Part shown: piece by piece, positions 6,741-57,057 of the stretch
Layout of the letters: each line of letters begins with the position of its first letter
How positions within the stretch are numbered: the stretch's first letter is position 1
Assembly: GCA_964650355.1 (NCBI GenBank)
Contig: CAZYTL010000005.1
Coordinates: 23,209 to 87,208, forward strand
Length of the DNA: 64,000 nt
Direction of reading: 5' to 3'
Origin: an uncultured Gammaproteobacteria bacterium
GTDB lineage: Bacteria; Patescibacteriota; Microgenomatia; CAYXHB01; CAZYTL01
Translations under genes and position numbers: made by a program
Notes under the pieces: model-generated
Seen by the model: only the letters and a program-made list of their open reading frames with translations
Databases searched by the model: none
What the model was told of the DNA's origin: nothing

Positions 6741-7277
6741 TTAATACGCCTTTCTCCCTATTACAGCCACCTTGCTCCCATCCACAATAACGGGAATCAC
6801 CACCTGATTACCAATCTGGTAATCTCTTTCTTGCTCTTTATCATTAACAAGTACTCTTAAATCATAAAGTGGATCTCTAGTATCTTCCGTCGAGTCAGCC
6901 AAAAACACGCTGGGTTGAGTACACATACCCCGACCAGGTGGACAAGCTTTTTCCCCAAGCAGAGTACTAATCACATACCCGGAAACCTTAACCATAGAGC
7001 CGTTCAAAGCACTCCGGTGTTCAACCACATATTTGACCGGTATCGGCTCTTGCGGAAGTGAACCAACAGATAAATCAGGATATGGCGCTAAACCGGCCTC
7101 ATTAGGATCCTCGGGTTGGATCGTTGCACTGGAAAGCTGCCCACTTCCCTGGCTCACAGGAGTGTTAACACCACTGTCCGGTCCACCGCCCAACCCCTTT
7201 TGGTAGTAAACCAAAAATATCACCACTCCCACCAGCACTCCAATCACCATCAGTAATCTGGTTGTCGTTTTTTGCAT
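6741..7277 (-). CDS. Hypothetical protein anchored by an N-terminal TM helix.
   Basis: 178 aa. The TM segment is LLMVIGVLVGVVIFLVYY. No family motifs. It lacks the family promoter box. Confidence 0.45.
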   Translation of the reverse strand: MQKTTTRLLMVIGVLVGVVIFLVYYQKGLGGGPDSGVNTPVSQGSGQLSSATIQPEDPNEAGLAPYPDLSVGSLPQEPIPVKYVVEHRSALNGSMVKVSGYVISTLLGEKACPPGRGMCTQPSVFLADSTEDTRDPLYDLRVLVNDKEQERDYQIGNQVVIPVIVDGSKVAVIGRKAY

Positions 7278-7333
7278 ATATAATACCAGCTTAACATAAA
7301 CTCAAATTCAGATTCAGCCCTAATTTTCTAATC

Positions 7334-9562: not shown

Positions 9563-9649
9563 ATCATGACTCTACCACGATCCAAGTATCACGGAGCACA
9601 TAACACGTAGCATTCCGTTTACCCCTCATTACCATTTACAATTTACCGA

Positions 9650-36589: not shown

Positions 36590-37325
36590 CTACCTCCTCG
36601 CCCACCCCACCCCATTGATCAACTGACCGTCGATATGATTACTCGTCGCGTCATGTGCCACCATTCCGCTCCCCTCATTAAACTTCCAATAACCTACCAA
36701 TCCCGGAGAACTCACGTCCACCTCCTTGTTCATATTCCCCTCGATCTCCGCCTCACTTCTGGCCACATCCCAGATTCTCACCTCATCTATCTCCCCGCTC
36801 ATATACTCTGCGCTCAACCTCCCAATCAATAATGGATTGCTATCCTGGTTTATCGTATCACTCCCGACACTGACCTCTTCCACCTTTACTCCGTCTACAT
36901 ATAGCCTCTGATACTGTCCGTCATACATACACGCCATGTGATACCACGTATTATTACTCACACTTGTGTCCCAACTCACCCGACGATTGCCTGCATTAAC
37001 GTAGTTAAAATAACAATTGAAACTGCTTTCATTTACCCACAGTCTCATCTGATTAAAGGCTGTACTCATCAAATTACTATTAGCGCTAAAATTATCAGCC
37101 TTCACCCATCCCTCTATCGTAATTCTATTACCGGGCTTGTATGCGCTACTACTGGGCACTTCCACATAACCATCCACCCCGTCAAAACTTAAACTGTAAT
37201 TCGTATTCATCCCCACTTTCGTTGCCCAATCCAAACTATTAACCTTTCCATCCCCAACCAAATCCAGTCAGGCTCATCCCCAGCCCTATCAATAACCAAA
37301 CCAGCAAGACTAATCTTCTCCGCAT
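36590..37325 (-). pseudogene. Minimal or remnant family member. The family promoter and signal peptide are joined, across a +1 frameshift, directly to a dockerin-like module plus LamG domain.
   Basis: From the ATG at 37325 the reading is MRRRLVLLVWLLIGLGMSL..., stopping after 28 codons. Skipping 1 nt gives LDLVGDGKVNSLDWATKVGMNTNYSLSFDG... open to 36590. The ORF track starts this frame at a TTG (37261). The TGATAGAGTGGAAGT-ATG promoter box is present at 37326-37340. It looks like a deletion derivative of a 23103-like gene. Confidence 0.55.
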
Positions 37326-40009: not shown

Positions 40010-41458
40010 CTACTGTTTTACCACTCTTACCCAATCCCAACAATTCACCTTCCCGTCTCCATTCTGATCTCCGATGGCGCTAAACCAATTGACCAACCAC
40101 GACTTCAAATTAGTCAGGTCTAAAGAAATTTTTTCAATCCGGATTTTGTCAAGTTTGGTGTTCATTTCCCGTCCTTGAAAGCGGAGAGTGTAGACCGGCC
40201 CGTTTGTGAGAGTAAAGATTCGGGGATCAGTTTTAGGCGAATCAAAAGTACCGCTGCCCCGGTAGCTGACCTGATTCCAAACCCAAGAAGTGGGAGGTTG
40301 AGTATCAATGGTTTGGTAGAGGATATCCCAGATGTCAGCAGTAGTAGGAGAGGTTTGGTTGATGGTAACGTAGAAGGAGTTATCGTTACCGGCAGTAGGC
40401 CAGACTCTGCCTGAGACTAAGTAGTCACCAGATTGGGCAACTCTGAATTGGAAGGCGGCGTTTCCATTATCTGCTTGGGAAGAATAGATATATTGACCTC
40501 CGGAAGCCGTGGAGTCAGAGTTGATAGTCATGGAAGATAGTTGCATAGACTCGGCCTCCGATTCATAGGCAGTTTGGATCAGAGCCGGAGTAGGTGTCGG
40601 GCCGGTCGTTGGGGAAGGCGTAGGAGTAGATGTGGGACCTCCCGGACAGGGAGGTCCTCCTTGATCAGGATTCACTTCTGCACAACTGGTACCTCTCCGA
40701 TACTCATCGTGATAGATAATCTCTGTATCACTATAAATGTCTTTGTTTCTATAAATCCCCATCTTCAAATAAGGCCCAGTATTATAATCGTAATCGTAGC
40801 CTACTGGCCCACCGTAATCTAAAACAGGATCCGGATTGCCATCCATCCAAACCCTCACATAATGGTTTCCTGATAGTCGGTAATCAAAACGAGTATTAAA
40901 AATAAAATCATGCCATACTCCCTGTGTTGCTTTTCCAATCCATTTATCCTGATTAGATCCTTCTGTAGATCTGATGCCAATATAAAAATCGCCCCCATAA
41001 ATGTACTGCAAGCTTAAAATCGGGCTATCTCCTCCGGTAGCCGCATGCCATTGGGCTATTATATTAAATCTGTAAGAACCATTTGGCTGATACCTAGGGT
41101 CAATATATACTGAAAACCCCTGCCAAACGTCTGTTGAATAAGGGATTTTGTCTTGATCATTAGCTCCATTTAACATAATTTCGGAGCGTTCATTTCCTCC
41201 CATGGGGTTTGGTGTGGGTATGTTTCCATCTCGCACTATGTTTCGCACCGCATATTTGCCGCTTCTTACCGGACTGGTTACCACCTGCGTCGAATCGGTA
41301 CAACAATGGCCACCATCTCGCCACCCGCTTAAATCCCCACTCTCAAAATCCAACACCTTGTGTTGAATATATTGAGCTCTTGCTGGGAACACAGCCACAA
41401 ATCCCATTACCCAGCATGCAACCACCAATCCAGCAATTCGCCACCATTTCCTGTCCAT
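40010..41458 (-). CDS. Secreted concanavalin-like putative polysaccharide lyase (PF14099-like jelly roll) with CBM6/35-like module and dockerin-like tail.
   Basis: 482 aa. The lyase block is ERSEIML...QWHAATGGDSPILSLQY. The CBM block is AYESEAESMQLSSMTINSDSTASGGQYIY..FQFRVAQSGDYLVSG..DNSFYVTI. The tail is LKSWLVNWFSAIGDQNGDGKVNCWDWVRVVKQ. Confidence 0.7.
   Translation of the reverse strand: MDRKWWRIAGLVVACWVMGFVAVFPARAQYIQHKVLDFESGDLSGWRDGGHCCTDSTQVVTSPVRSGKYAVRNIVRDGNIPTPNPMGGNERSEIMLNGANDQDKIPYSTDVWQGFSVYIDPRYQPNGSYRFNIIAQWHAATGGDSPILSLQYIYGGDFYIGIRSTEGSNQDKWIGKATQGVWHDFIFNTRFDYRLSGNHYVRVWMDGNPDPVLDYGGPVGYDYDYNTGPYLKMGIYRNKDIYSDTEIIYHDEYRRGTSCAEVNPDQGGPPCPGGPTSTPTPSPTTGPTPTPALIQTAYESEAESMQLSSMTINSDSTASGGQYIYSSQADNGNAAFQFRVAQSGDYLVSGRVWPTAGNDNSFYVTINQTSPTTADIWDILYQTIDTQPPTSWVWNQVSYRGSGTFDSPKTDPRIFTLTNGPVYTLRFQGREMNTKLDKIRIEKISLDLTNLKSWLVNWFSAIGDQNGDGKVNCWDWVRVVKQ
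40150..40640. repeat. Left arm of a roughly 480 bp inverted duplication. It encodes the CBM6/35-like module of 40010 and is G-rich on the plus strand, against the local skew.
   Basis: The reverse complement of 40270-40320 is cctctaccaaaccattgatactcaacctcccacttcttgggtttggaatcag. The matching 43420-43470 reads ctctatcaaaccattgacacccaacctcccacttcttgggtttgggatcag. Confidence 0.65.
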
Positions 41459-41589: not shown

Positions 41590-43737
41590 ATGAATAAACC
41601 TAAACACCTCTCATTTCTATTTCTTATCAGACTAGCCGTCAAGATTTCACTTTCTCTATTGCTCTTTCTATTTGTTAGTTCTCCGGTTTACGCCCAATCC
41701 ACAGTCACCATTGTTCCCACATTCCAATCTCTGGGCATTTATTGGCAACACTCTCAGGGGTCAAGTACCGCCCAAGTCCAATACCGGCCCTCAGGAACAA
41801 CTACCTGGCACACGGCTCACCCCATGTGGTATGCCGGTAACTCTGAATACCGCAGCAGCATTGTGCTACTAAACCCGGGGACTACATATGAAGTCCGTCT
41901 GACTCTGGGCACTTCCTCAGTCACTACCACCGCCACCACCTGGTCGGAAAACTTCCCCATCGGCCAAACCGTTACCTTGCCCGAAAACACCTCTCAAACC
42001 GTAACCATCAATAATTCAGGCACTGCCAACGGCTATCTGTTATATACCCATCAATCAGGCAAAACCGCCACCATCAATACTACCGCCACCAATAACATCA
42101 GAATCAACGGGTCCTATGTAATTATTCGTGGTTTGACGTTAAAAAACGCCGGCACGGACGCCATCAAAATTAGTAGAGAGTCTCACGACATCATCGTCGA
42201 AAACAATACTGTCACCAACTGGGGCGGATCAGGAAATAGTAATAACATGGCCGCAGCCGTCAGCACCGACCAACCAGGAAATGGTTACAACGCCGGACCT
42301 CGAATTATTATTCAAAACAATCTATTCACTACCCCCAGAGGCAACTCCAATACCTGGGACACTGCTCATCCCCATGGCCCTCAGGGAGTAACCCTGTGGG
42401 AAACCGACGGACAAAACGTCATCCGCAGCAACACCGTCACTTCCAATAATAGCCATTATTATAACGACGGGATCGGCGGAGGCAAAAATTCTAGTACCAG
42501 AGGCAACGTTTACCGCGACAGCGACATCTATAACAACACCGTGAAATATTGTCGGGATGATGGATTAGAAATCGAAGGAGGCAATATGAACGTTAGAATA
42601 TGGAATAACCATATCGATAACTGTTTTGTGGGCATCGCTACTGCAGCTAACCTCACTGGCCCCAATTACATTTTCCGCAACCTGATCACCAACGGCCGCC
42701 AGAGCGATGGCAATATCAAGTCAGCCGCCTTCAAGTTAGGCAGCGGCAGCACCTTTGGCGCCATCTACATTTACCACACCACTGTAAATAACGTCAGAAA
42801 CGGCCTCACCAACTGGGGCGGAGCAGTCTATAACCTCACCGCCAGAAATAACATCTTAAACACAATTCAAGATAGTATCGGCTCTACCATCGCTTCCTCT
42901 AACATTTATGACCACAACACTTGTGCCAATCCTGAAACTGGCTGCACCACCGGCACTGTAGCGTTCGAAAGCGGCTCTTATATTCCCACCTCCAGCATCG
43001 CTGTAGACAAAGGTCTTCCTATTCCTAATTTCAATGATGGCTATCTCGGCTCAGCTCCTGACATCGGCGCTTTCGAAAGAGGCGGTACCGTACCCAATCC
43101 CACAGCGACTCCCACATCTGGCCCTACTCCCACCACTGGTCCGTCGCCCACGCCCCCCCTCATCCAAACCGCCTACGAACTCGAAGCCGAATCCCTGCAA
43201 CTCTCTTCTCCCATGACCATCAACTCTGACTCTTCAGCTTCCAATGGTCAATACATCTCTTCCCCAATAGCTGAACAAGGAATCGCTGCTTTCCAATTCA
43301 AAGTTGCCCAAGATGGTGACTATCTCATCTCCGGTAAGGTTTTCCCTACCGCTGGGAATGATAACTCTCTTTACATCACCATCGATCAGTCCTCTCCCAC
43401 TGCCGCAGATACTTGGGATATTCTCTATCAAACCATTGACACCCAACCTCCCACTTCTTGGGTTTGGGATCAGGTCAGCTACCGGGGCACAGGTACCTTT
43501 GACTCTCCCCAAACTGATCCTCGTATCTTTACTCTCTCTGCCAACCACACCTACGCTCTCTATATCCAGTCCCGGGAAATCAACACCAAACTCGATAAAC
43601 TCCGCATTGAGAAAACTACCACCACTCCACCCACTTTGCAGCAATTTCTCACTCACTGGCTCACCTCTACCTTCGACCAAATCTTAGACGGCCAAGTCAA
43701 CAGCCTAGATTTTTCCCAAATCATAACCAATCTCTAA
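41590..43737 (+). CDS. Secreted beta-helix protein (plus-strand member): FN3-like N-domain, helix rungs, CBM6/35-like module, degenerate dockerin-like tail.
   Basis: 715 aa with a signal peptide. The rungs include IIVENNTVTNWGG and IWNNHIDN. The module AYELEAESLQLSSPMTINSDSSASNGQYISS...FQFKVAQDGDYLISG is about 80% identical to the one in 40010. The tail is LQQFLTHWLTSTFDQILDGQVNSLDFSQIITNL. Confidence 0.75.
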   Translation: MNKPKHLSFLFLIRLAVKISLSLLLFLFVSSPVYAQSTVTIVPTFQSLGIYWQHSQGSSTAQVQYRPSGTTTWHTAHPMWYAGNSEYRSSIVLLNPGTTYEVRLTLGTSSVTTTATTWSENFPIGQTVTLPENTSQTVTINNSGTANGYLLYTHQSGKTATINTTATNNIRINGSYVIIRGLTLKNAGTDAIKISRESHDIIVENNTVTNWGGSGNSNNMAAAVSTDQPGNGYNAGPRIIIQNNLFTTPRGNSNTWDTAHPHGPQGVTLWETDGQNVIRSNTVTSNNSHYYNDGIGGGKNSSTRGNVYRDSDIYNNTVKYCRDDGLEIEGGNMNVRIWNNHIDNCFVGIATAANLTGPNYIFRNLITNGRQSDGNIKSAAFKLGSGSTFGAIYIYHTTVNNVRNGLTNWGGAVYNLTARNNILNTIQDSIGSTIASSNIYDHNTCANPETGCTTGTVAFESGSYIPTSSIAVDKGLPIPNFNDGYLGSAPDIGAFERGGTVPNPTATPTSGPTPTTGPSPTPPLIQTAYELEAESLQLSSPMTINSDSSASNGQYISSPIAEQGIAAFQFKVAQDGDYLISGKVFPTAGNDNSLYITIDQSSPTAADTWDILYQTIDTQPPTSWVWDQVSYRGTGTFDSPQTDPRIFTLSANHTYALYIQSREINTKLDKLRIEKTTTTPPTLQQFLTHWLTSTFDQILDGQVNSLDFSQIITNL
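43090..43630. repeat. Right arm of the inverted duplication (CBM6/35-like module of 41590).
   Basis: See the 40150-40640 entry. The mirror-image spurious ORFs 40175..40414(+) and 43234..43680(-) both contain VADLIPNPRSGRL. Confidence 0.65.
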
Positions 43738-45906: not shown

Positions 45907-47352
45907 ATGCGCATCCTCATTCCCACTTCCGAAGCCGCTCCCATATACAAGGTTGGTGGCTTAGGGGACGTCGTCGGCAGTCTGCCCCGAGCTCTCACCC
46001 AACTCGGCCACGATGTTCGCCTAGTTCTACCTCGCTACTCCCAAATAGAACTTCAGCCGGAACACTGGCATCGTCTTGACCAGTTCCCGGTCATCTATGA
46101 CCACCACCTTCACCAAGTCCAAATCTGGCAAGGATATCTACCCCATACTCAAAACGAATACTCCTCCTCGGGCGTGATCGTCTACCTCTTCGAGGAACCT
46201 CAATACCTCACTCAAAACTATCAGGAAGCTTACACCCAAATTGATCAATTCGCCTTCTTCTCCCAAGCTGTCACCACTTGGTTAGGTGAACACATCACCG
46301 CTTGGCAACCCCAAATCATCCACCTCCATGACTGGCACGTAGCTCTCATTCCCTTGCTTCTTAAACAACAATACCCTCTCGTCAGCCCCCGTTACAAAAC
46401 GCTGCTTACTATTCACAACCTCGCCCACCAAGGCGTTACCCCCAGCCCCATCGTCAACAAGCTCCGACTCGATCCCAGCCTCTGTCAATCTCTTTCCTGG
46501 GACATGGAAAACGGTGATGTAGACATCCTCATGGAAGGCATCATCCACTCAGATCTCGTCAACACCGTCAGCCCTACATACGCTAAAGAAATCCTCACCA
46601 CCGAACACGGCTCCACCTTAGAACCCGTCCTTCAAAGCATCCAAGGCAAACTTTCCGGCATCCTCAACGGCATTGACACCCAAAGATGGAATTCCCAAAC
46701 AGATCCCGCTCTCGTCCAAACCTACACCGTCGATAACTGGCACTCAGGAAAACAAGCCAATAAAACCGCCCTTCAAAAACAAGCCGGCCTTCCCGAAAAC
46801 GCTGACACACCTCTTCTTGGATTCGTCGGTCGTCTTGACCCCATCCAAAAAGGCGTTCACCTCATCCTCGAAGCCATCCGCGCCGGCCGCCTTGCCAACG
46901 ACCACCACCAATTCATTCTCCTGGGCACCGGCGATCCTCAACTTCAGGACCAGCTCCGCCAAACGGCAGAAGCCAACCCCCATTTCTCCGCCCACATCAA
47001 ATTTGACTCCCAACTCGCCAGCCGCATTTACTCCGCTTGTGACTTTCTCATCGTGCCTTCCAAATTCGAACCCTGTGGGCTTATTCAGATGATCGCCATG
47101 CGCTACGGCACCATCCCCATCGTCAGACAAACAGGCGGCCTCATCGACACCGTCAAAGAAGAACAAACCGGCTTTTTATTCCCGGATTACACCATGGAGT
47201 CTATGACCGCGGCCGTCGATAAGGCTCTTGATTACTGCCAGGACTTCCAACGCTGGACCCAACTAGTCACCAATTGCATGACCCAGGATTTTTCCTGGAA
47301 CAACGCCGCCCAAGAATATGTTAAGCTGTATGAAAGACTATTGATCACCTAA
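45907..47352 (+). CDS. glgA: Glycogen/starch synthase (GT5, ADP-glucose type).
   Basis: K-x-GGLGDV motif (KVGGLGDVVGSLPRAL). 481 aa. The C-terminal GT-B motifs are present. Confidence 0.8.
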   Translation: MRILIPTSEAAPIYKVGGLGDVVGSLPRALTQLGHDVRLVLPRYSQIELQPEHWHRLDQFPVIYDHHLHQVQIWQGYLPHTQNEYSSSGVIVYLFEEPQYLTQNYQEAYTQIDQFAFFSQAVTTWLGEHITAWQPQIIHLHDWHVALIPLLLKQQYPLVSPRYKTLLTIHNLAHQGVTPSPIVNKLRLDPSLCQSLSWDMENGDVDILMEGIIHSDLVNTVSPTYAKEILTTEHGSTLEPVLQSIQGKLSGILNGIDTQRWNSQTDPALVQTYTVDNWHSGKQANKTALQKQAGLPENADTPLLGFVGRLDPIQKGVHLILEAIRAGRLANDHHQFILLGTGDPQLQDQLRQTAEANPHFSAHIKFDSQLASRIYSACDFLIVPSKFEPCGLIQMIAMRYGTIPIVRQTGGLIDTVKEEQTGFLFPDYTMESMTAAVDKALDYCQDFQRWTQLVTNCMTQDFSWNNAAQEYVKLYERLLIT

Positions 47353-47364
47353 CAGTAACCACAG

Positions 47365-47410
47365 TTTTTGTTTTTCTGTTACATGTTACGTGTTCCATGT
47401 TACGTGACTT
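47365..47410 (+). promoter_or_regulatory. Four tandem ACRTGTT/ACGTGAC heptads immediately upstream of galT. The core is the same ACGTG as in the family-gene operator sites.
   Basis: ctgttacatgttacgtgttccatgttacgtgactt ATG. Confidence 0.45.
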
Positions 47411-48322
47411 ATGGCCAAATACGTTCCCGATACCTATACCAACCGCTGGGTCATCTTCGCCACTAAACGCGCTTTCCGACCCGACGATCATGCCCCAAAA
47501 GAAAAAAAAGGGCCCAAATCTAAACCTCCTGTTTTGCAAAAAAAACACGGTTACAACTTTCTTTCCTCTTGTCCTTTCTGCATCGGTAATGAACATCTCA
47601 CTCCTCCTGAGGTTACCCGCTGGAGCAGCCACGACGGCCATCCCGAATCCCAAACAGACCATCACTGGCTCGTCAGAGTCATTCCCAACAAATTTCCCAT
47701 CTCCGACATTCACGAGGTAGTCATCCATAGCCCTGACCACCTTCTGGATATCACCTCTCTTCCCGAGTACCACGTTGAAATCATCTTCAAAGTCTTCCTC
47801 CAGCGCTTCCAAGCCCTTTCCCAAAAAGGCACCGTCATCATCTTTACCAACCGGGGCAGTGAGTCAGGAGAATCACTCAACCATCCCCACAGCCAAATTG
47901 TTGTCCTACCTCGTCAAATCAAACTCGAAGTCATCTCTCTCCAACCGGTCAATAACATTATCGAAGAAACCCCTCACTACTACGTCTACTGCCCGGATTT
48001 TTCCCAGTGGCCTTATGAAGTTTGGGTCTCCCTTAAAAAGTTTCACGAACCATCATTCGTTGACCACGACACCGCCCACTTCGACACCATCAGCGAGGAA
48101 GAACTCGCCGAACTCAGCCAAGTCATGCGGCACATCCTCGCTACTCTTAGGTCAAAATTCCCCGACAGCTCCTACAATTATTACATCCATCCCTATAGCC
48201 CCTGGTACGTCCGTATCATCCCCAGATTCGTCACCCGCGCCGGCTTCGAACTGGGTACTGGCATCTACGTCAACGTCAAAGATCCCGCCCTCGCCGCCAG
48301 AGAACTCCGTCCCCAGGAATAA
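47411..48322 (+). CDS. galT: Galactose-1-phosphate uridylyltransferase-like HIT-family nucleotidyltransferase (GalT, or ADP-glucose phosphorylase-like).
   Basis: CPFCIGNEH zinc/Cys motif and HPHSQIVVLP His-Pro-His active-site motif. Confidence 0.7.
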   Translation: MAKYVPDTYTNRWVIFATKRAFRPDDHAPKEKKGPKSKPPVLQKKHGYNFLSSCPFCIGNEHLTPPEVTRWSSHDGHPESQTDHHWLVRVIPNKFPISDIHEVVIHSPDHLLDITSLPEYHVEIIFKVFLQRFQALSQKGTVIIFTNRGSESGESLNHPHSQIVVLPRQIKLEVISLQPVNNIIEETPHYYVYCPDFSQWPYEVWVSLKKFHEPSFVDHDTAHFDTISEEELAELSQVMRHILATLRSKFPDSSYNYYIHPYSPWYVRIIPRFVTRAGFELGTGIYVNVKDPALAARELRPQE

Positions 48323-50100
48323 CTACCAGTCTCTTAACTGAGCCAGAAATCAAACACCCTTCTCCTCTGCATTTTTTTATCATCAAGGACCACAATGACA
48401 TAATGTTAGAAATTAAATAAAAATCTTCATTTCCAATTCTTCTGTAACTCCTACCTCCATCCCGACAGCCAAGTGTCACTCCTAAAATGATCAACCGCGG
48501 ATCAATATCCATCCGCATAAGACCAGTCCTATTGAATGACTGAATTCCCCGTTGTGCCCTCCTGCTCCTAACATCACCCAATTTCAGGAGCGATTTATCC
48601 AAATTCCGAAGCTCCATTAATTAGGGGTACAACTATTCGCTAACCCCGACACTTCTGACGCAGAAAGAGCACGGTTATACACTCTAATTTCATCAAGATC
48701 CCCTGTAATATCAGCACCATCACTAACCCCCCTACAATCCATTCCAACTCCCACATAACAAATATGTCCAATCGGTGGTCCAGTGGCTCGGCTAACAACG
48801 CTCACCCCGTTAACATACAACCTAGCCATACCGTCTGTATCGGAATAAGTTAAAGCCACGTGACTCCATTGGCCAACTGGTAAAGGATTAGAGGCATTAA
48901 GGTAATCATAACCTCCTCCTCGGTGAATTAAGCCTTGAGGACGATTTTGACTGTCAAGATTTATAATGAATGTACTCCGGCCATCAATAACTAGGTTATA
49001 AGAACCGCTTTGCGTTCTCGGCCTAACCCAAGCCGCAATCGTAAAATCTGTCACATCAAAATCGCCCCCATCAGTACCAGAGGGACTGATAAAAGTTCTA
49101 TTCCTACCGTCGATACTAAGAGCTTGCCCCCCACACCCACCGTTGATCCATGTATCTCCAGTCGGATCCAAGAGAGAAGTATGATAATTATATCCCGACA
49201 TATCAAATACATTACTATCTGATTCGTTATCGAACGAATAATATAGAATCAGCCCTGGTTCAGGTGAGGGTTCTGGTGTGACCATAGTTGTCGGTGTCGG
49301 GGTAGGTGTCGACGTCGGAGGGACAGGTTCTATACACAATCCGGTATCAGGATCGCACACCTCCGGATCAGTACATCCACTAACTACACAACTCGATACA
49401 CACGTTCCCGTATCCGGATCACATACCCCATACCCGTCACATACACTCGGATCTGTAGTACAATCATACCCCCCACATAGATAAGTCGGATTGTCCCCAC
49501 TCGGCTCACATTGCCCCCCACTTCCACACGCCGCAGATGACCAACACTCTAATGTACATGGATTCCCCGGATCTTTCGCCTGACATGCATATTCCCCTAC
49601 CCCTCCATACGGATTACATACCTCACATTGCCCACACGCACTCGGATCATCAGGATCACATGGCGTCAGACTCCCAGGCGGTGTCGTCGGTCCCGGCCCA
49701 GGCGGTACCGTCACCTCCGGTGGCGGTGTCGGTGTTGGTCCTCCTCCTGTACCAAACCCTTCAAATATCTCTATCCCCAAAAAATATTGCACCAAAATCG
49801 CTATCGCATACGATAACGCCAACACCGCAAACCCTATCAAACACTGCGTCAACCTCTCCCTCGCCTTCTGTAAATTAGATTGATCATCTCCACTCGTTAA
49901 CCACTGAAACCCTCCCCACAACAAACATAAAAATACCACCACTCCCCCTGCTATCAACACCATCCCCAATACCTTCGACAGAAATGTCGGTATCGATATC
50001 ACCCCACTAAATAGATTCCCCACCTCCTGTAAGTGCCCCAACAATTGCGTCACTGGCTGCATGCTAACCTTAGTATCTCATTCGCCTTTTTACCCTGTCA
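48190..50100. repeat. Tandem duplication unit 1: galT 3' end, spacer, surface-protein gene, promoter.
   Basis: 48190-48322 recurs at 50128-50280. 49500-50100 recurs near-identically at 51430-52036. Confidence 0.7.
48617..50062 (-). CDS. Membrane-anchored Cys-rich surface protein with N-terminal two-TM hairpin (TrbC/VirB2-like topology), PT linker, CxxC-rich region and C-terminal LamG-like domain.
   Basis: 481 aa. TM1 is VLGMVLIAGGVVVFLCLLWGGFQWL. The loop is TSGDDQSNLQKARERL. TM2 is CLIGFAVLALSYAIAILVQYFL. There are many CGQCEVC/CTLEC motifs. The LamG block is FTIAAWVRP...LYVNGV. Confidence 0.65.
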   Translation of the reverse strand: MQPVTQLLGHLQEVGNLFSGVISIPTFLSKVLGMVLIAGGVVVFLCLLWGGFQWLTSGDDQSNLQKARERLTQCLIGFAVLALSYAIAILVQYFLGIEIFEGFGTGGGPTPTPPPEVTVPPGPGPTTPPGSLTPCDPDDPSACGQCEVCNPYGGVGEYACQAKDPGNPCTLECWSSAACGSGGQCEPSGDNPTYLCGGYDCTTDPSVCDGYGVCDPDTGTCVSSCVVSGCTDPEVCDPDTGLCIEPVPPTSTPTPTPTTMVTPEPSPEPGLILYYSFDNESDSNVFDMSGYNYHTSLLDPTGDTWINGGCGGQALSIDGRNRTFISPSGTDGGDFDVTDFTIAAWVRPRTQSGSYNLVIDGRSTFIINLDSQNRPQGLIHRGGGYDYLNASNPLPVGQWSHVALTYSDTDGMARLYVNGVSVVSRATGPPIGHICYVGVGMDCRGVSDGADITGDLDEIRVYNRALSASEVSGLANSCTPN

Positions 50101-50112
50101 ATGTTAAATTAA
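50063..50112 (-). promoter_or_regulatory. Sigma70-like promoter of the surface-protein gene: TTGACA, 18 bp, extended -10 TGaGATACT, 11 nt to ATG.
   Basis: On the coding strand: aatttaacaTTGACAgggtaaaaaggcgaatgaGATACTaaggttagcATG. The same arrangement lies upstream of copy 2 (51985-52035). Confidence 0.5.
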
Positions 50113-50139
50113 ACATCTCCCCAAATCTCCCGTAACAAC

Positions 50140-50280
50140 TGCATCCATCCCTATAGCCCCTGGTACGTCCGTATCATCCCCAGATTCGTCACCCGCGCCG
50201 GCTTCGAACTGGGTACTGGTATCTACGTCAACGTCAAAGACCCAGCCCTAGCCGCCAAAGAACTCCGCAACCAAGACTAA
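50140..50280 (+). pseudogene. Orphan duplicate of the galT 3' end (last 44 or so codons), left by the tandem duplication.
   Basis: It encodes HPYSPWYVRIIPRFVTRAGFELGTGIYVNVKDPALAAKELRNQD*. This is nearly identical to the galT C-terminus. Confidence 0.7.
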
Positions 50281-50388
50281 AGCCTTCCTCATTCACTAAA
50301 ATGAAAAATTGCCGATTTCTGCCACACTAAATCTTAATTAAGCCCATATTCATCAACGACTTAATCCTCTCCTATCCCTTCTTTAGAA

Positions 50389-51984
50389 TTAGAATAAGTG
50401 AAAGTTATACACTGTATCCCCGCTCACATTCATATAATTAAAGTCACGGTATATATTCGGGCCATCCCTCAACAATGACCAAACTACATATCTTCCGTTA
50501 GGCAAGCCATTAATTCGATAGTTGCCGCTTGCATCAACCCTACCTGAACGAATCGCTCCGGTATCAACATTATAAATATAAATAGGAGTATTCGCTTGAG
50601 AAATCGGAATCCCTCCTGTCCCCGGATATCGATTAATTCCGCTCAAACTTCCGGTTCCTACACTCGGAGGAGTTAAAGTTGACAAATCAATATCTCTGAC
50701 AAATGGTACCCAGAAATTAATTATATTAGGCACGGTATCACTGGAATCCATAGTCCCGTGACCAAAAGTCAAAACACTGCCTTGTCTCCTCAGAATAGTT
50801 ATCAAATAACTATTTGGCGCATACTGCAATGGATAAAGACTATTCAACTGCAAGTCGCCTTGACTATTGGTTGTGAACGGACACCAAGAAATAGGAATGC
50901 TCGGATCCAGACTATAACTGAACAAATATCCTGGTTCGCTAGCATAAGCCGTACCATACAATAATAAATTAACATTTATATAAGTAGACGAACCCGTTAA
51001 CCCAGTAGCACAAGCATACTGCCCTGCTGGTGGTGTTGGAGTAGGAGGTATAGGAGTATTCGTCGGAGCAATGTATTCACATCTACAATTAGTCCATTCT
51101 TTCGCTCGGTTTTGACATCTCGGCGCTCCCGTAGAACTGTGCATCACCCTTCCGCATCCTATCCCACTCGTCTCCGTACAACTCGCGTCACTCCCTAAAT
51201 ACGCCCTGTTATTAGTCGCCAACCTATCAGTCCCTACATCCGTGCATTCCCGCCCCGCCCCAGAGCACAACTGGTTACAACTCTGATTAGTCGCAATATT
51301 AGGTATCGACGGATCTATACAATGACCCGTCTCAGGATCGCATACCCCGTACGGCTCACATATACTCGGATCTGTCGTACAATCTCTCTGCATACACTCC
51401 TCCCGGTATTCACCACCTTCCGCCGGTTCGCATTGCCCCCCACTCCCACACGCCGCAGCTGACCAACACTCTAAAGTACAAGGATTCCCCGGATCTTTAG
51501 CCTGACATGCATATTCCCCTACTCCACCATACGGATTACATACCTCACATTGCCCACATGCACTCGGATCACTCGGATCACATGGCGTCAGACTCCCTGG
51601 CGGTGTCGTCGGTCCCGGCCCCGGCGGTACCGTCACCACCGGTGGCGGTGTCGGTGTTGGCCCTCCACCACTTCCAAACCCTTCAAATATCTCTATCCCC
51701 AAAAAATATTGCACCAAAATCGCTATCGCATACGATAACGCCAACACCGCAAACCCTATCAAACACTGCGTCAACCTCTCCCTCGCCTTCTGTAAATTAG
51801 ACTGATCATCCCCGCTCGTCAACCACTGAAACCCTCCCCACAACAAACATAAAAATACCACTACTCCCCCGGCTATCAGCACCAAACCCAACAACCTCGA
51901 CAAAAACGTCGGTATCGATATCACCCCACTAAATAGATTCCCCACCTCCTGTAAGTGCCCTAATAATTGCGTCACCGGCTGCAT
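50389..51984 (-). CDS. Paralog of 48617..50062 with an identical N-terminal 230 aa (two-TM anchor plus Cys-rich region) but a different C-terminal half: a second Cys-rich block, PT linker, and a carboxypeptidase-regulatory-like beta-sandwich.
   Basis: 531 aa. The C-terminal block is RSGRVDASGNYRINGLPNGRYVVW. The N-terminal 5' half is near-identical to copy 1 at nucleotide level. Confidence 0.65.
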   Translation of the reverse strand: MQPVTQLLGHLQEVGNLFSGVISIPTFLSRLLGLVLIAGGVVVFLCLLWGGFQWLTSGDDQSNLQKARERLTQCLIGFAVLALSYAIAILVQYFLGIEIFEGFGSGGGPTPTPPPVVTVPPGPGPTTPPGSLTPCDPSDPSACGQCEVCNPYGGVGEYACQAKDPGNPCTLECWSAAACGSGGQCEPAEGGEYREECMQRDCTTDPSICEPYGVCDPETGHCIDPSIPNIATNQSCNQLCSGAGRECTDVGTDRLATNNRAYLGSDASCTETSGIGCGRVMHSSTGAPRCQNRAKEWTNCRCEYIAPTNTPIPPTPTPPAGQYACATGLTGSSTYINVNLLLYGTAYASEPGYLFSYSLDPSIPISWCPFTTNSQGDLQLNSLYPLQYAPNSYLITILRRQGSVLTFGHGTMDSSDTVPNIINFWVPFVRDIDLSTLTPPSVGTGSLSGINRYPGTGGIPISQANTPIYIYNVDTGAIRSGRVDASGNYRINGLPNGRYVVWSLLRDGPNIYRDFNYMNVSGDTVYNFHLF

Positions 51985-52036
51985 ACTAACTCTAGTATCT
52001 CATTCGCCTTTTTCCTCTGTCAATGTTAAATTAATA

Positions 52037-53452
52037 TTGATGCGCTCATCCTGGCTACCCAAATCTCTCATCTACCAAATATTCACCGGCCGTTGGTCAA
52101 TGGAAACTTCAACTCCCCCTCTCAAGGACCTATCTAAACGTAACTGGCAATCTTTAACCAATCTCGGATTTAATACTTTCTATCTTCTCGGCCTTTGGGA
52201 ACACCAAGGCCCCATTGTCGTAACTCAAGAAGAAGGAATTAATTTACCCTCTCCTCATAGTAATGAAGCTTCGTCCAAAGGACGATCGTCCTCTGGACGA
52301 AACGAAGCTCTTGAAACTCATCTTCCTCGCATCTCCTCCATGATGGCCCTCACCAACCACCAGATCGTTGACCCTCGTCTCGGAACCCAAGAGGACCTTA
52401 CCCAACTGATTAATCATTTCCATCAATTAAACTGTCAGGTAATCGTAGACTTCGTTCCCAACCACACAGCTACCACCCACCCCTGGGTCACCTCCCATCC
52501 CGAGTACTATTATCAAAAATCTTTCCCAAAAGGGAAAGATAACAACAATTTAACCATTCAACCATTCGACAATTTTCTTCCCGAATTTTCCGGCGACGTT
52601 TATAAACTCAACTACCAGAACCCCCAACTTCGCCAGGAAATGCTCCGCATCCTCCAATTCATCAGTCAACTCAACATCGATGCCGTCCGCTGTGACATGG
52701 CCCATCTAGTCCCCGCTGATTTCTGGTCCGAAGCCATCTCTATTATTAAAAATCAACACTCTGACTTTACCTTCATTGCCGAAGCCTATCCTCCCCACCC
52801 TTTTGATTACTCCGTTATCACCGATCTTATCAGAGCCGGATTCGACGCCGTCTACGACAGCCAACTCTACTATGACCTCAATCAAATCATCCTCCACCAC
52901 GCCCCACTCGACTACCTCACCAAACACATCAGTTACGTTTCTTCTCGTCTTCCCCAAACTAATAACTATCAACTATCAACTATCAACTACTTTTGTAACC
53001 ACGATGACCCACCCTTAAACAATCGACACAACGACCCAACAATTCAAAGCCAGATCGAAACTTACCTTGAGTCTCTCATCGCTCTCACTCTCTTCACACC
53101 CGGCACTCCATTCTTCTACAACGGCTCTCTTTTAGGATTCGACCATCGCCTGGCCCATCATTGGCTGGAGAAACTTCCTTTACAATACCAAGAAACCGAA
53201 AACCCCATCCCGGACCATCTGCAACAGATCTTTCGTCTCCGCCCTCAAATCACCACGGAAAAATTTCTCTCAATTTCTGTCAATTCCCAACTAATTTCTA
53301 TCTCTTACTCTCATCACTTAATCACCATCAACCTTACTCCTTCTCCGCAACCATTATCAAATTTCCCAACCACCCAACGCGGACTCGTCCACCAATACAC
53401 CTCTTCCGACCAACTTCCTCCCGGACAATCAGAAATCTTTCTCCTCCCTTAA
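52037..53452 (+). CDS. GH13-family alpha-amylase-like enzyme.
   Basis: YQIFTGRW (region 0), DFVPNHT (region I), AVRCDMAHLVP (region II Asp) and FIAEAY (region III Glu). Confidence 0.7.
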   Translation: MMRSSWLPKSLIYQIFTGRWSMETSTPPLKDLSKRNWQSLTNLGFNTFYLLGLWEHQGPIVVTQEEGINLPSPHSNEASSKGRSSSGRNEALETHLPRISSMMALTNHQIVDPRLGTQEDLTQLINHFHQLNCQVIVDFVPNHTATTHPWVTSHPEYYYQKSFPKGKDNNNLTIQPFDNFLPEFSGDVYKLNYQNPQLRQEMLRILQFISQLNIDAVRCDMAHLVPADFWSEAISIIKNQHSDFTFIAEAYPPHPFDYSVITDLIRAGFDAVYDSQLYYDLNQIILHHAPLDYLTKHISYVSSRLPQTNNYQLSTINYFCNHDDPPLNNRHNDPTIQSQIETYLESLIALTLFTPGTPFFYNGSLLGFDHRLAHHWLEKLPLQYQETENPIPDHLQQIFRLRPQITTEKFLSISVNSQLISISYSHHLITINLTPSPQPLSNFPTTQRGLVHQYTSSDQLPPGQSEIFLLP

Positions 53453-53677
53453 CACTAAATTAACCATCTCTTATTGCTGTTATCTGATTACTCTTTACCG
53501 ATTACGAACCCCACTTTCTATCAATTTCCAAATTTCACAATTTCCTATTTCTATTTTCTACTTCTTATTTCCTATCATTATCTTATTCATTGACTTCTTC
53601 TCTCCTCTAGTTCTACTATGAAAGTTAGATTACAAAACTAAAAATTTTTTTAATCTATTACCCACAATTCATAATTC

Positions 53678-54898
53678 ATGAACGTTCTAATGTTCGGTTG
53701 GGAATTGCCCCCCCACCACAGTGGAGGACTGGGCACAGCTTGTTATGGCTTAACCCACAGCCTTTGCCAACATGGAGTCAACATCAATTTCATCCTTCCT
53801 CGCAAACTTCCTCATCACATCTCGTTCATGCATGTCTATTCCGATCACATTTCTTCCGCCGATCTCTCCGTCACCGCCCTTAACTCCCTTCTTAAATCCT
53901 ATTCCACCACTGTCGATTATCAAACCCTTCTTTCCCAACTCACTCCCGAAGAGTTACAAGCCCACGTCTTTGGCCGCAACCTCATCGATGAAGCTCTCCG
54001 TTATGGTCGTCAGGCGGCCAAATGGGCCCGTCATCTTCCTCATGACCTCATCCATTCCCACGACTGGATGACTTATCCCGCCGGTATCCAGGCAGCTAAG
54101 ACCTCCGGCAAACCCTTTGTCGCCCACGTGCACGCCACCGAATTCGACCGCTGCGCCGGCGACCACGTCAACCACCAAGTCGCCGACATCGAATACCAGG
54201 GTTTAACAAGAGCCGATCGGGTCATCACGGTTAGTAAGTACACCAAAAACATCATAGTTAATAAATATGCCGTCAATCCCCACAAAGTTACGGTTGTTCA
54301 TAATGGCATCGAACCCCACGAATTCCCTCCCACCCATCTACCCACCCTCCTCCCTGGATATCAAGTTGTCCTCTTTGTCGGTCGACTCACCATCCAAAAA
54401 GGAGCTGACTACCTCCTCAAAGCCGCCCCCAAAGTGCTCCTCCATCGCCCTCGCACCATTTTCCTCATCACCGGTGACGGTGATCTCAAACGCCAACTCA
54501 TTATGGAAGCTGCTGGGCTGGGCGTTTCCCATCGCGTCCTCTTTACCGGCTTCATCCGTGACCGCCACCAACTTGCCTCTATTTACCAAGCGGCTGACGT
54601 CTTTGTCATGCCCTCGGTTTCCGAACCTTTCGGCATAGTCCCCTTGGAAGCCATGGCCAACCACAAACCAGTCATCATCTCCAAACAATCCGGCGTATCA
54701 GAAATAGTTAACCATAGTCTCAAGGTTGACTTCTGGGACGTAGACCGTTTAGCTGATCTCATCATCTCCGTTCTCAACTATCCTGCTTTGCAGGAGGAAA
54801 TGGCTTTCCAGGGAAACCGTGAACTCCAACACATTACCTGGGATAACGCTGCCCGCAAAACCCTGGCCGTCTATCAACAAGTCCTCAACCATTCTTAA
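53678..54898 (+). CDS. GT4-family glycosyltransferase (glycogen-synthase-like, GT-B fold).
   Basis: The N-terminus is GWELPPHHSGGLGTACYGL. It has FVGRLTIQKGADYL and the E-x7-E motif EPFGIVPLEAMANHKPVI. Confidence 0.65.
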   Translation: MNVLMFGWELPPHHSGGLGTACYGLTHSLCQHGVNINFILPRKLPHHISFMHVYSDHISSADLSVTALNSLLKSYSTTVDYQTLLSQLTPEELQAHVFGRNLIDEALRYGRQAAKWARHLPHDLIHSHDWMTYPAGIQAAKTSGKPFVAHVHATEFDRCAGDHVNHQVADIEYQGLTRADRVITVSKYTKNIIVNKYAVNPHKVTVVHNGIEPHEFPPTHLPTLLPGYQVVLFVGRLTIQKGADYLLKAAPKVLLHRPRTIFLITGDGDLKRQLIMEAAGLGVSHRVLFTGFIRDRHQLASIYQAADVFVMPSVSEPFGIVPLEAMANHKPVIISKQSGVSEIVNHSLKVDFWDVDRLADLIISVLNYPALQEEMAFQGNRELQHITWDNAARKTLAVYQQVLNHS

Positions 54899-54911
54899 AC
54901 CCCATAGTATC

Positions 54912-54939
54912 TTGACAAACAACTAATCCCCTGTATAAT
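54912..54939 (+). promoter_or_regulatory. Near-consensus sigma70 promoter: TTGACA, 16 bp, TGtTATAAT (extended -10).
   Basis: cTTGACAaacaactaatcccctgTATAATtg, read directly. It lies 215 nt upstream of the small ORF ATG. Confidence 0.6.
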
Positions 54940-54945
54940 TGAAAC

Positions 54946-55156
54946 CGTTGAAAACCTCCCCACACCGCGTGGAGAAGGGTTTTCTTCTCGCACCTTTATA
55001 AAGGTCAAAAGATGCTACCAGGTGTGCATTCTTGTGCCTCACCTGCAGCTCTAGCGGAACGGAAAGAGAATAAATACTCCTGATTCTTTTCCCCATCCGC
55101 TAGAGCACTCGCGCTCATGGCGGAAATAATGCTTACGCAGAAAGGAGGTGAAATCC
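54946..55156 (+). other. Roughly 210-nt GC-rich structured leader or possible cis-regulatory RNA with two clear hairpins (55019-55045 caggtg/cacctg, and 55048-55106 with an 11-bp stem gctctagcgga/tccgctagagc). It ends in the strong SD aaaggaggtg.
   Basis: Perfect inverted repeats are visible in the sequence. No tmRNA, RNase P or SRP hallmark motifs were found. Confidence 0.4.
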
Positions 55157-55498
55157 ATGCTGCGCAAGCGAAATCTGCTTTGGGCGGCCTTGGCCGCCAT
55201 CGTCGTCATCGGCTTGCTGGCGCCCCTCTGGGCACCCGCAACGCACACCGCAGAAGCCGCGGGACCCTGTTATTTTGCCAATAGGCAGAGGGTCTGCCCC
55301 ACCAGTTTACGCACTGAAAACTATGATTACCTCATGGGATTGGATGATACCGGACAAATCATCCAATCCTGGCGTGCTTCGCCTAACGGGCGCACCCAAA
55401 CGGACGCATATGATGCCAGAATCACCAGCTTTGCTGTCTTCGGCAAAGCCAACGGCATCAGCCAAGCAAGCTCGCCCAACTGGGGAGGCACGAGGTAG
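55157..55498 (+). CDS. Small secreted protein of about 113 aa with signal peptide and two Cys, in a GC-rich insert with foreign composition and a canonical SD.
   Basis: ATG at 55157, preceded by AGGAGG with a 7-nt spacing. The ORF track starts at the upstream GTG 55148. The signal peptide is MLRKRNLLWAALAAIVVIGLLAPLWAPATHTAEA. The GC content is well above the rest of the window. Confidence 0.5.
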   Translation: MLRKRNLLWAALAAIVVIGLLAPLWAPATHTAEAAGPCYFANRQRVCPTSLRTENYDYLMGLDDTGQIIQSWRASPNGRTQTDAYDARITSFAVFGKANGISQASSPNWGGTR

Positions 55499-55815
55499 CA
55501 CCCCGTTCCACCATGGGACACCCTGGGCTCCGGCTTTCTAGGGGGGCCCTTTTTCATGCTCATAAGTTCCCCTCCCTCAACTCCTTCTTCCATCTCCATT
55601 CCAAACCCGCTAAACTAAAGGCAGTGCATTAAGAATCACGAATCAAGAATCTCCTATAAGGGGAATAAACCATTATATCCGCAAATTCCTTATTCTTATC
55701 GTGTTCAGAAACTAATAACTATTAAATTAACTATTAATTGGTTACTTTCCAATCTTGATGTGAAACTTGTCCCAAAGGGACCCCTTCGGGGAAACTAATA
55801 CCTGATACTATCCTT

Positions 55816-57057
55816 ATGGCCGCCGTCGTCCTCTATTTCCACGTCCACCAACCATTTCGCGTCAAACCCTACTCCATCTTCCAGGCAGGTCATGACCATC
55901 AATACTTCAACGCCAATAGCGGATCCCGACTCGATAACCAAAAAATCCTTCGCAAAGTCGCAGACAAATGTTACCTTCCTGCCACCAAAATCCTCCGTGA
56001 CCTGATTTCCCGCTATCCCGATTTCAAAGTTTCATTTTCCATTTCCGGTCCTATCATTGAACAACTCAGACAATTCGCCCCTGAAGTTCTCCACTCCTTT
56101 CAGGATCTGGTGGCCACCGGCAACGTGGAACTTCTCGCCGAAACCTACCACCATAGCCTCTCCTTTCTCTATTCCCAACCAGAATTTCACCGCCAAATCC
56201 AACTCCAACATCAAAACATTCAGGATACCTTTGGCTACACCCCCACCGCCTTCCGTAATACCGAACTCATTTACAATAACGCCCTTGCCGCTGAAGTCGA
56301 AAAACTCGGTTATCAGGTAATTCTGGCCGAAGGCATTGACTCCGTACTTGGTTGGCGCAACCCCAATTTCGTCTACCGACCCGCTACCACCCAAAAATTG
56401 AAACTCTTACTCAAAAACTATCGTTTATCCGACGATATCGCCTTTAGGTTCTCCGAACGCTCATGGAACGAATGGCCCCTTACCGCCGAAAAATTCGCCA
56501 ACTGGGTCTCCCAGGTAAACGGCAACGGCCACGTAGTCAATCTCTTCATGGATTTTGAAACTTTAGGAGAACATCAATGGGCCGACTCAGGCATCTTCGA
56601 TTTTCTCCACCAACTTCCCTACGAAATCTACCGTCATCCTGATAACCAATTCATGACCGTCACTCAAGCCGCCCAAACCTTTCCGGTCATGGATACCATC
56701 GACATGCACCACCTCACTTCCTGGGCAGACACCGAACGCGACCTCTCAGCTTGGCTCTCCAACCCCATGCAGCACTCCGCCATCCAAACTCTTTACGACC
56801 TGGAAGAACTCATTCTCAATACCGACGATCCCGAGTTAATTTCCGACTGGCGCCACCTCCAATCCAGTGACCACTTCTATTATATGTGCACCAAATGGTT
56901 CAATGACGGCGACGTCCATAAATACTTCAACCCCTACGAGACTCCTTATGATGCCTTTATCAATTACATGAATGTTCTCCACGATCTCAGGCATCGGGCC
57001 GAATCCCACCCCCGCAACACCACCAAACACAAGTTGACAACCAAGAGCCAAAAGTGA
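55816..57057 (+). CDS. GH57-family alpha-glucan-active enzyme.
   Basis: The N-terminal HQP motif (LYFHVHQPFR) is recalled from GH57. There is an acidic FMDFETLGEH region. It sits in an alpha-glucan gene neighbourhood. Confidence 0.6.
   Translation: MAAVVLYFHVHQPFRVKPYSIFQAGHDHQYFNANSGSRLDNQKILRKVADKCYLPATKILRDLISRYPDFKVSFSISGPIIEQLRQFAPEVLHSFQDLVATGNVELLAETYHHSLSFLYSQPEFHRQIQLQHQNIQDTFGYTPTAFRNTELIYNNALAAEVEKLGYQVILAEGIDSVLGWRNPNFVYRPATTQKLKLLLKNYRLSDDIAFRFSERSWNEWPLTAEKFANWVSQVNGNGHVVNLFMDFETLGEHQWADSGIFDFLHQLPYEIYRHPDNQFMTVTQAAQTFPVMDTIDMHHLTSWADTERDLSAWLSNPMQHSAIQTLYDLEELILNTDDPELISDWRHLQSSDHFYYMCTKWFNDGDVHKYFNPYETPYDAFINYMNVLHDLRHRAESHPRNTTKHKLTTKSQK

Follow-up and report, generated by a model that had tools for sequence, protein, structure and literature searches.

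Tandem duplication and domain replacement in two genes for putative pilin-anchored surface proteins of a probable Patescibacterium

Two adjacent genes on the minus strand, here called A (48617-50062) and B (50389-51984), lie in a 64,000-nucleotide (nt) stretch of contig CAZYTL010000005.1 (assembly GCA_964650355.1, contig positions 23,209 to 87,208), hereafter the window. They have a promoter and an N-terminal pilin module in common and end in unrelated C-terminal domains. By the layout of its sequence, the locus is the footprint of a tandem segmental duplication after which the centre of one unit was replaced. We favour, with moderate confidence, the reading that A and B are pilin-anchored, outward-displayed binding proteins that were diversified by duplication and exchange of C-terminal cassettes. 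The evolutionary part of this account (duplication, cassette replacement and patches of conversion) is solid, and the functional part is put forward as a hypothesis. All of the elements that an earlier note on this DNA had described were found where it placed them or a few bases away, and a chance resemblance was ruled out.

Two paralogous genes and the traces of their duplication

Both genes are intact open reading frames (ORFs), arranged head-to-tail between flanking genes on the plus strand. Gene A encodes a protein of 481 amino acids (aa) with a pilin hairpin, a Pro/Thr linker, a Cys-rich region and a LamG domain, while the 531-aa product of gene B has the same hairpin, linker and Cys-rich region, followed by an 8-Cys module and a beta-sandwich cassette. 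The shared module covers codons 1-223 (49394-50062 in A and 51316-51984 in B, both on the minus strand) and comprises the hairpin, the Pro/Thr linker and the first Cys-rich units. Over this module 199 of 223 residues are identical (89%; BLASTP, E = 9e-120), and BLASTP gave no significant alignment beyond residue ~223. The homology is interrupted at codon ~188, returns for ~24 codons and stops at codon ~223, within the Cys-rich region. Of the first 190 codons, 38 differ between the genes, 28 of them synonymously and 10 non-synonymously; given this preponderance of synonymous changes, A and B are both functional genes under purifying selection.

The DNA similarity begins 49-50 nt before the ATG. 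The upstream blocks of A (50064-50112) and B (51986-52034), on the minus strand like the genes themselves, are identical at 45 of 49 nt, and each holds a TTGACA element, an 18-nt spacer and an extended -10 element, TGaGATACT (50101-50072 in A, 52023-51994 in B). In both copies, this TTGACA-18 nt-TG-n-GATACT arrangement is the best promoter-like site of the region. Promoter block and first 564 coding nt together are 92.5% identical between the two genes, with 46 mismatches. The earlier note had described a common promoter and an identical stretch of about 230 codons; the promoter and the N-terminal part are indeed shared (over the 49-nt block and 223 codons), but they fall short of identity, at 89% of residues and 92.5% of nucleotides.

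To the left, A converges with an intact plus-strand gene of the HIT family (47411-48322), which is galT-like and whose last 139 nt are the source of a second, orphan copy. This 3' end (48184-48322) recurs at 50142-50280 with 10 mismatches over the 139 nt, and a repeat finder paired the slightly longer segments 48154-48322 and 50112-50280 at 86% identity. The orphan fragment, likewise on the plus strand, has kept the reading frame and the stop codon of galT and has no start codon; an in-frame stop at 50110 precedes it. It marks the start of unit B. All 10 mismatches lie within its final 60 nt. Between the end of the promoter block of unit A and the orphan fragment is a duplication junction of 29 nt (50113-50141), where about 15 of 30 bases match galT and which may represent either decayed galT homology or filler DNA.

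Unit A extends over about 48184-50112 and unit B over about 50142-52034. Both measure ~1.9 kb, nearly the same length, and the copies are spaced 1958 and 1922 nt apart. The unit ends are 92-93% identical, with the galT 3' end on one side and the N-terminal module and promoter on the other, and the unit centres, made up of the C-terminal coding half and the 3' spacer, have no homology to each other. The 294-nt spacer 3' of A (48323-48616) is not homologous to the 108-nt spacer 3' of B (50281-50388) and therefore belongs to the replaced segment. The locus thus combines adjacent units of similar length, homologous unit ends and a junction that links the end of one unit to the start of the next, as a tandem duplication should. 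The tandem duplication claimed in the earlier note, with an orphan galT 3' fragment left at the unit boundary, is confirmed by this geometry and by the copied segment itself, which is 139 nt long rather than the 135 bp first reported.

In the series of events that we propose, a segment of about 48184-50112 (~1.93 kb) would have been duplicated in tandem to yield two units, one copy would then have had its C-terminal half and 3' spacer exchanged for other sequence, and patchy gene conversion would have acted between both units afterwards. The outcome would be two binding specificities served by one promoter type and one anchor type. Gene conversion after the duplication is suggested by the mosaic distribution of the mismatches, which in galT are confined to the end of the fragment and which are missing from a run of 128 nt in the coding region (nt +184 to +311; 49752-49879 in A and 51674-51801 in B) against a background divergence of ~7.5%. 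A run of this length has P = 0.0008 under uniform placement of mismatches and P = 0.01 when third codon positions only are used. It is probably a gene-conversion tract, and constraint at the nucleotide level may be an alternative cause.

Within the pilin hairpin, the identical run covers the last part of the loop together with the second helix; it contains a terminator-like hairpin. Such terminator-like hairpins, found inside A (49818-49799) and inside B (51740-51721), were dismissed as no commoner than in shuffled sequence, and an Rfam scan of 47300-52300 gave no match. No remnant of a displaced cassette was detectable in the two spacers, and no nucleotide-level paralogue of either cassette was present within the 64-kb window. 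The LamG domains of neighbouring enzymes were considered as recent donors of the LamG domain of A and were rejected, as the likeness is only remote (E = 6e-5).

A pilin hairpin with a Cys-rich stalk and unrelated heads

Residues 23-94 of both proteins (49781-49996 in A and 51703-51918 in B, minus strand) form a hairpin that is a member of PF18895 (T4SS_pilin, named for the type IV secretion system, T4SS) by sequence and by shape. The Pfam scores are 37.9 bits for A and 38.4 bits for B against a cut-off of 26.6, covering profile positions 4-71 of 71. In a search with a profile of 89 small pilins obtained in our library search, both proteins matched at E = 1e-41, and none of the other window ORFs of at least 35 aa did. 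Exactly two hydrophobic segments appear in the hydropathy plots of A and B, and the AlphaFold models of both contain confident helices at residues 24-56 and 61-95 (predicted local distance difference test, pLDDT, 83-90 in A and 81-90 in B). These results uphold the TrbC/VirB2-like N-terminus with two transmembrane helices that had been proposed from the sequence. The opposite case, a cleaved signal peptide with a single transmembrane segment, does not apply here: there are two segments, the first 30 residues are unlike a signal peptide, and an unannotated one is impossible because the ORFs can be extended by only 5 codons 5' of the ATG.

Neither protein matched PF04956 (TrbC/VirB2) at E <= 0.1 in Pfam, and a distant relative, P0004, matches both PF18895 and PF04956. 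In NCBIfam the only matches were below threshold, to TafC and to the Mbov_0395 pilin-like conjugal protein. A search of PDB sequences with the profile of the N-terminal module gave no pilin match; a weak match to NuoI (4Fe-4S subunit; E = 0.007) over the CxxCxxC stretch was regarded as compositional and set aside. Each membrane helix has one Cys, at residue 46 ('FLCLLW') and residue 74 ('QCLIG'), and both are invariant in the fusion proteins and in the small pilins of two related loci, L002 and L003, described below.

The loop between the helices (residues 56-73, TSGDDQSNLQKARERLTQ) has three basic residues, K66, R68 and R70, and the short stretch after the second helix has none. From the positive-inside rule and the analogy with VirB2 and TraA, we predict that both termini of the membrane-inserted hairpin face outward and that the loop is cytoplasmic. 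Upstream of the helices, the fusions have a conserved N-terminal peptide, 'MQPVTQLL.EL..LG.PF'.

The hairpin is followed by a Gly/Pro/Thr linker (residues ~104-133) and by a Cys-rich region that contains internal repeats; a second Pro/Thr linker leads to the variable head. The number of Cys residues after the second helix is even in both proteins (22 in A and 24 in B). A CxxCxxC motif, CGQCEVC, is conserved at residues 143-149 of A and B (~49616-49636 and ~51538-51558). The linker and a disulfide-bonded stalk would hold the C-terminal domain away from the cell, and the ligand of the head would be a glycan or some other surface structure, carried by a host cell or a polymer. The cell-surface adhesin suggested in the earlier note is plausible, as it fits the Pro/Thr linker, the even Cys count after the second helix and the lectin-type LamG domain.

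The two C-terminal halves are unrelated, as had been claimed; their Pfam domains differ and nothing past residue ~223 could be aligned. In A, a LamG/ConA-like lectin domain occupies residues 333-472 (48647-49066, minus strand), with a Laminin_G_3 score of 95.9 bits against a Pfam cut-off of 27.6. The best Foldseek matches of the A model were lectin-type jelly rolls at E about 1e-7, among them domain 4 of AbnA, the N-terminal half of clostridial neurotoxin Hc, the lectin domain of a trans-sialidase, the carbohydrate-binding domain of NanA and a pentraxin; since the model is of low confidence outside the hairpin, these matches only confirm the class of the domain.

In B, an 8-Cys module of ~70 aa (residues ~236-302; 51079-51279, minus strand) recurs in other pilin fusions, its pattern having been seen by eye in P0001, P0002, P0008, P0010, P0020 and P0056. 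It is followed by the C-terminal cassette (residues 313-531; 50392-51048, minus strand), for which AlphaFold predicts a beta-sandwich at residues 445-505 with pLDDT of 58-83. The cassette is CarboxypepD_reg-like and not a member of that family: its Pfam match over residues 459-501 is sub-threshold, with 24.9 bits against a cut-off of 32.3. Of the two likenesses that the earlier note named for the C-terminal halves, the one to LamG is above the Pfam threshold and the one to the carboxypeptidase-regulatory domain is below it. A word-indexed protein search with residues 300-531 of B gave no match, and the only relative of the cassette is found in P0006, which is 39% identical over residues 313-512.

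Related fusions, known pilin systems and competing explanations

We searched for relatives of the two proteins on several scales. Among 1.84 billion cluster representatives, searched exhaustively with HMMER, 9141 pilin-domain proteins matched at E <= 1e-3 and only 7 at E <= 1e-30. Among the 150 best library matches, most are 100-230 aa long and ~20 have at least 300 aa. The shared module had 4 matches in a word-indexed search of 5.8 billion proteins, a scan of Joint Genome Institute (JGI) metagenome contigs found one 1.2-kb contig with a relative, and tblastn of the module against plasmids gave no match. None of 185,579 species-representative genomes had the pilin module, and the only match there was an unrelated LamG domain in a metagenome-assembled genome of Phycisphaerae. 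Judged by these searches, the family of pilin fusions is rare.

Some long relatives have architectures close to those of A and B. P0006 (618 aa) shares 51% identity with B over the N-terminal module and 39% over the C-terminal cassette, with a different middle, and P0091 (613 aa) joins a distant pilin to a LamG domain, being 32% identical to A in both parts. Other long relatives have one to three hairpins, then Cys-rich tails and unknown domains. In loci L002 and L003, the next gene upstream of the fusion encodes a free-standing pilin of 109-110 aa. The small pilin of L003 (109 aa) is 48% identical to the hairpin of A and ends in '..EVFEGFA', where A runs on as '..EIFEGFG-TGGGPTP'. As the small pilin stops where the linker of A starts, the fusions can be described as a complete pilin with a C-terminal extension.

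Two further loci show fusion genes in tandem with other pilin genes. In L012 (Ca. Woesebacteria, GCA_016196025.1; 8487-11615), four small pilin genes are followed by the 538-aa fusion P0020. The second gene of this locus (8808-9284) encodes a Cys-rich segment before the hairpin and not after it, an arrangement that fits a topology with both termini outside. L011, on an unrelated 144-kb contig, has tandem fusions of 506 and 634 aa (6915-10473) with conserved triple hairpins and diverged Cys-rich tails; tandem fusion pairs are thus not unique to this window. The L011 pair lies among housekeeping genes (FtsEX, RF-1, TGT and GH57), with no T4SS components. As for the lineage, the best match of the TruB protein encoded in the window has 67% identity, and the named matches (Pacebacteria, Magasanikbacteria and 'Patescibacteria group'), at 39-43%, are all Patescibacteria. 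On this one marker gene, the organism is probably a poorly sampled member of the Patescibacteria radiation.

Patescibacteria commonly encode VirB2-like pilins in arrays of 2-11 divergent genes, in most cases alongside a monoderm-type T4SS, and a pilin gene is found near virB4 in 1135 of 1948 assemblies (PMC12102498). Southlakia epibionticum, the one genetically tractable member of the Patescibacteria, cannot grow as an epibiont if it lacks its T4SS genes or its pilin array (PMC10633639; PMC12857230). A and B, which form a two-member array, resemble these PF18895 pilins in the hairpin, in their tandem genes and probably in lineage, and relatives of A and B occur in such arrays. In other respects they differ. 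Pilins within arrays average 25% identity with a maximum of 54% (PMC12102498), whereas the hairpins of A and B are ~90% identical; stand-alone pilins have ~100-180 aa, whereas A and B have 481 and 531. Moreover, A and B carry a predicted extracellular extension of 380-430 aa with unrelated, exchangeable heads, and no T4SS gene was found near them among the large window ORFs that were scanned. A full-text literature search returned no description of such pilin fusions, a result that is limited to the searchable library and is not proof of novelty. We regard A and B as a variant, adhesin-like and so far undescribed, of a pilin family that is familiar from Patescibacteria.

Several better-known systems offer partial parallels. 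The conjugative TrbC/VirB2/TraA pilins (PF04956) of Gram-negative T4SS share with A and B a two-helix hairpin, a short charged loop and a predicted topology with both termini outside; A and B differ from them in having no PF04956 match and no cleaved leader, in their large C-terminal domain and in their monoderm host. The surface of the F pilus displays short peptides that have been fused to the C-terminus of its pilin, and in type IV pili, minor or tip pilins such as TcpB and CofB carry a large C-terminal domain on a pilin-type N-terminus. A LamG-bearing minor subunit, TafC, is known from haloarchaeal Tat-fimbriae (PMC11821415). Like TcpB, CofB and TafC, A and B would combine a filament-subunit module with a bulky binding domain in few copies, but the filament families and assembly machineries of the former are unrelated to VirB2-like pilins. 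The LamG region of A does weakly match the NCBIfam model of TafC (E = 1.3e-6), although at 27.7 bits against a cut-off of 410 this reflects only the shared LamG domain.

Tandem arrays of VirB2 paralogues in Bartonella and Anaplasma are thought to vary surface or host interactions, according to the work cited in PMC12102498. There, too, pilin genes are amplified in tandem and the exposed part varies; the difference is that the pilin itself varies in those arrays, whereas A and B keep the pilin constant and swap whole C-terminal domains. With cellulosome scaffoldins, A and B have in common that a presumed cell-anchored protein is encoded near many secreted enzymes with a dockerin-like calcium-loop tail. 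In contrast to scaffoldins, they have no detected cohesin domain (Pfam, E <= 0.1) and use another type of anchor.

We tentatively propose, at somewhat less than even confidence, that A and B would serve as the adhesive subunit of a filament made mainly of small pilins whose genes lie in another part of the genome, and that they would enter it in low numbers or at its tip. What favours such entry is the full pilin hairpin, the conserved N-terminal peptide and the presence of fusion genes inside or adjoining small-pilin arrays in three relatives. Several observations weigh against this proposal and against pilin-anchored display in general. Family scans of nearly all 36 large window ORFs found no VirB4, VirB6 or other T4SS core gene, and the pilin profile found no small pilin gene among window ORFs of at least 35 aa. 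A head of 380-430 aa on each subunit is hard to fit into a tightly packed VirB2-type filament, and pilus formation by PF18895 proteins still figures in reviews only as a potential property (PMC12857230). The topology derives from hydropathy and charge alone, and the AlphaFold models (mean pLDDT 49 and 54, from shallow alignments) are of low confidence everywhere but in the hairpin and give no reliable shape for the stalk or the head of B. The cassette of B has no characterised relative, and ligand binding is deduced from domain type alone. Finally, the exact locus was seen in one genome only, and the ancestral single-copy state was not observed; around the closest relative of TruB, synteny extends over TruB and GAPDH only and then diverges.

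These points bear on a simpler explanation, in which the hairpin is a static two-pass anchor and A and B are membrane-tethered lectins or binding proteins, with no filament and no T4SS connection. It would accord with the lack of T4SS and small pilin genes in the scans of the window, with the position of A and B amid genes of glycogen and sugar-nucleotide metabolism, with the steric awkwardness of large heads in a VirB2-type filament, and with the tandem fusion pair of L011, which likewise has a housekeeping context free of T4SS genes. We nevertheless consider it somewhat unlikely, as the hairpin amounts to an entire pilin, which shares 48% identity with a free-standing one and joins its extension precisely where that one ends, as fusion genes accompany small-pilin arrays in the three relatives, and as a mere anchor would not need the conserved 'MQPVTQLL.EL..LG.PF' peptide. 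The earlier note had speculated that A and B could be the binding partner or scaffold of dockerin-like enzymes. This would make them a cohesin-like surface scaffold docking the enzymes tailed 'GDxNGDGKVNSWDW', ten of whose motifs sit on secreted beta-helix, CBM9 and lyase proteins of the same window, where A and B are the only obviously membrane-anchored and outward-facing proteins nearby. We find it scarcely credible: neither protein matched cohesin or a related Pfam family at E <= 0.1, the head of A has a LamG lectin-type fold, the tail motif occurs in 0 of 12 related loci (all of them short), and A and B stand 7 kb from the enzyme array, among metabolic genes. Nothing in our results links the two sets of proteins.

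Other explanations concern the origin of the pair. A and B might be old paralogues, or alleles of diverged strains, whose 5' halves and promoters were homogenised by ongoing gene conversion. Both architectures are old, to judge from the 32% identity of P0091 to A and the 51% and 39% identity of P0006 to B; the mismatches are uneven, with the 128-nt identical run among them; and 6 of 9 differing codons in the galT fragment are synonymous, which fits divergence inside a still-working gene. Conversion of 5' ends, however, cannot create a galT copy downstream of B, and the non-functional fragment lies exactly where a tandem duplication predicts it, with a 92% identity that matches that of the N-terminal module. 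The near-equal length of the units and their regular spacing also make this history improbable. An artefact of assembly, in which two strain alleles of one polymorphic locus with different C-terminal cassettes were chained in series, is very improbable. The source is a metagenome-type contig of 88,567 bp, the repeated parts are the flanks that two alleles would share, and the ~7-8% difference is like that of strain alleles. Against this, no long exact word of either flank recurs in the junction at 50113-50141, which leaves nothing for a graph mis-join to use; the galT homology stops abruptly after 139 nt and does not run on into the gene; each copy has a complete promoter and an intact ORF; and an independent assembly, that of L011, holds a comparable tandem pair of pilin fusions.

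Pilin-anchored display diversified by duplication and cassette exchange thus stays our preferred reading of A and B. A wider proposition can be derived from it, namely that VirB2-like pili of Patescibacteria carry minor or tip pilins fused to binding heads, that the fused head sets host or substrate specificity, and that this specificity evolves as genes are duplicated in tandem and exchange whole-domain cassettes while the pilin stays constant. Taken jointly, these statements are unlikely to hold. If they did, A and B would represent the first class of adhesin-pilin fusions in T4SS-type pili, and such fusions would be candidate determinants of host range in epibiotic bacteria. Pilins with recognisable binding domains would offer a concrete handle on what VirB2-like pilin arrays bind. 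If A and B are simple membrane-tethered lectins, they would be a modest addition to the list of domain architectures. The locus is also a clean example of how surface specificity may be diversified in a small genome, with anchor and promoter copied and apparently kept similar in part by conversion, and the displayed domain swapped whole.

Neighbouring genes and strand composition of the window

The block of genes for glycogen and sugar metabolism at 45907-57057 is interrupted by A and B. It encodes glycogen synthase, the GalT-like HIT protein (DUF4921/DUF4931 type), an alpha-amylase-family protein, a GT4 glycosyltransferase and a GH57 protein; the RmlABCD genes come after this block. The galT-like protein narrowly cleared the Pfam thresholds of DUF4921, DUF4931_N and GalP_UDP_transf. 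The alpha-amylase-family gene (52037-53452, plus strand) lies to the right of B and diverges from it.

In the left part of the window, about 17 large secreted proteins are encoded in series on the minus strand (275-41458; for example 2718-4679, 20206-23049, 25331-27568 and 40010-41458). Their domains include beta-helix, CBM9, LamG, F5/8-type C, Golvesin_C and polysaccharide lyases; for a presumed Patescibacterium, this set of glycan-degrading proteins is unusually large. Ten of these proteins end in a shared C-terminal tail of ~30 aa, 'LL.NWL...GD.NGDGKVNSWDWGKVISNL', with a likeness to a single calcium loop of the dockerin or EF-hand type, and the motif 'GD.NGDGKVNSWDW' has 10 sites in the window. 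A 223-aa ORF in the same region (36590-37261, minus strand) has a TTG start inside a tail-like motif, 'LVGDGKVNSLDW', followed by a LamG domain; it may be a remnant, a gene with a mis-called start or a gene with an internal tail motif. Between the array and the sugar-metabolism block, a 715-aa ORF (41590-43737, plus strand) had no Pfam or NCBIfam match at the thresholds used.

The window (1-64000) has an extreme strand asymmetry: its plus-strand GC skew is negative throughout, from -0.04 to -0.48 per 2 kb, whatever the direction of the genes. At third codon positions, the skew of the coding strand is -0.66 to -0.77 in plus-strand genes and +0.3 to +0.62 in minus-strand genes. The bias is therefore tied to the DNA strand, presumably through replication, and not to transcription. 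The contigs of relatives at L003 and L008-L010 have skews of -0.2 to -0.3.

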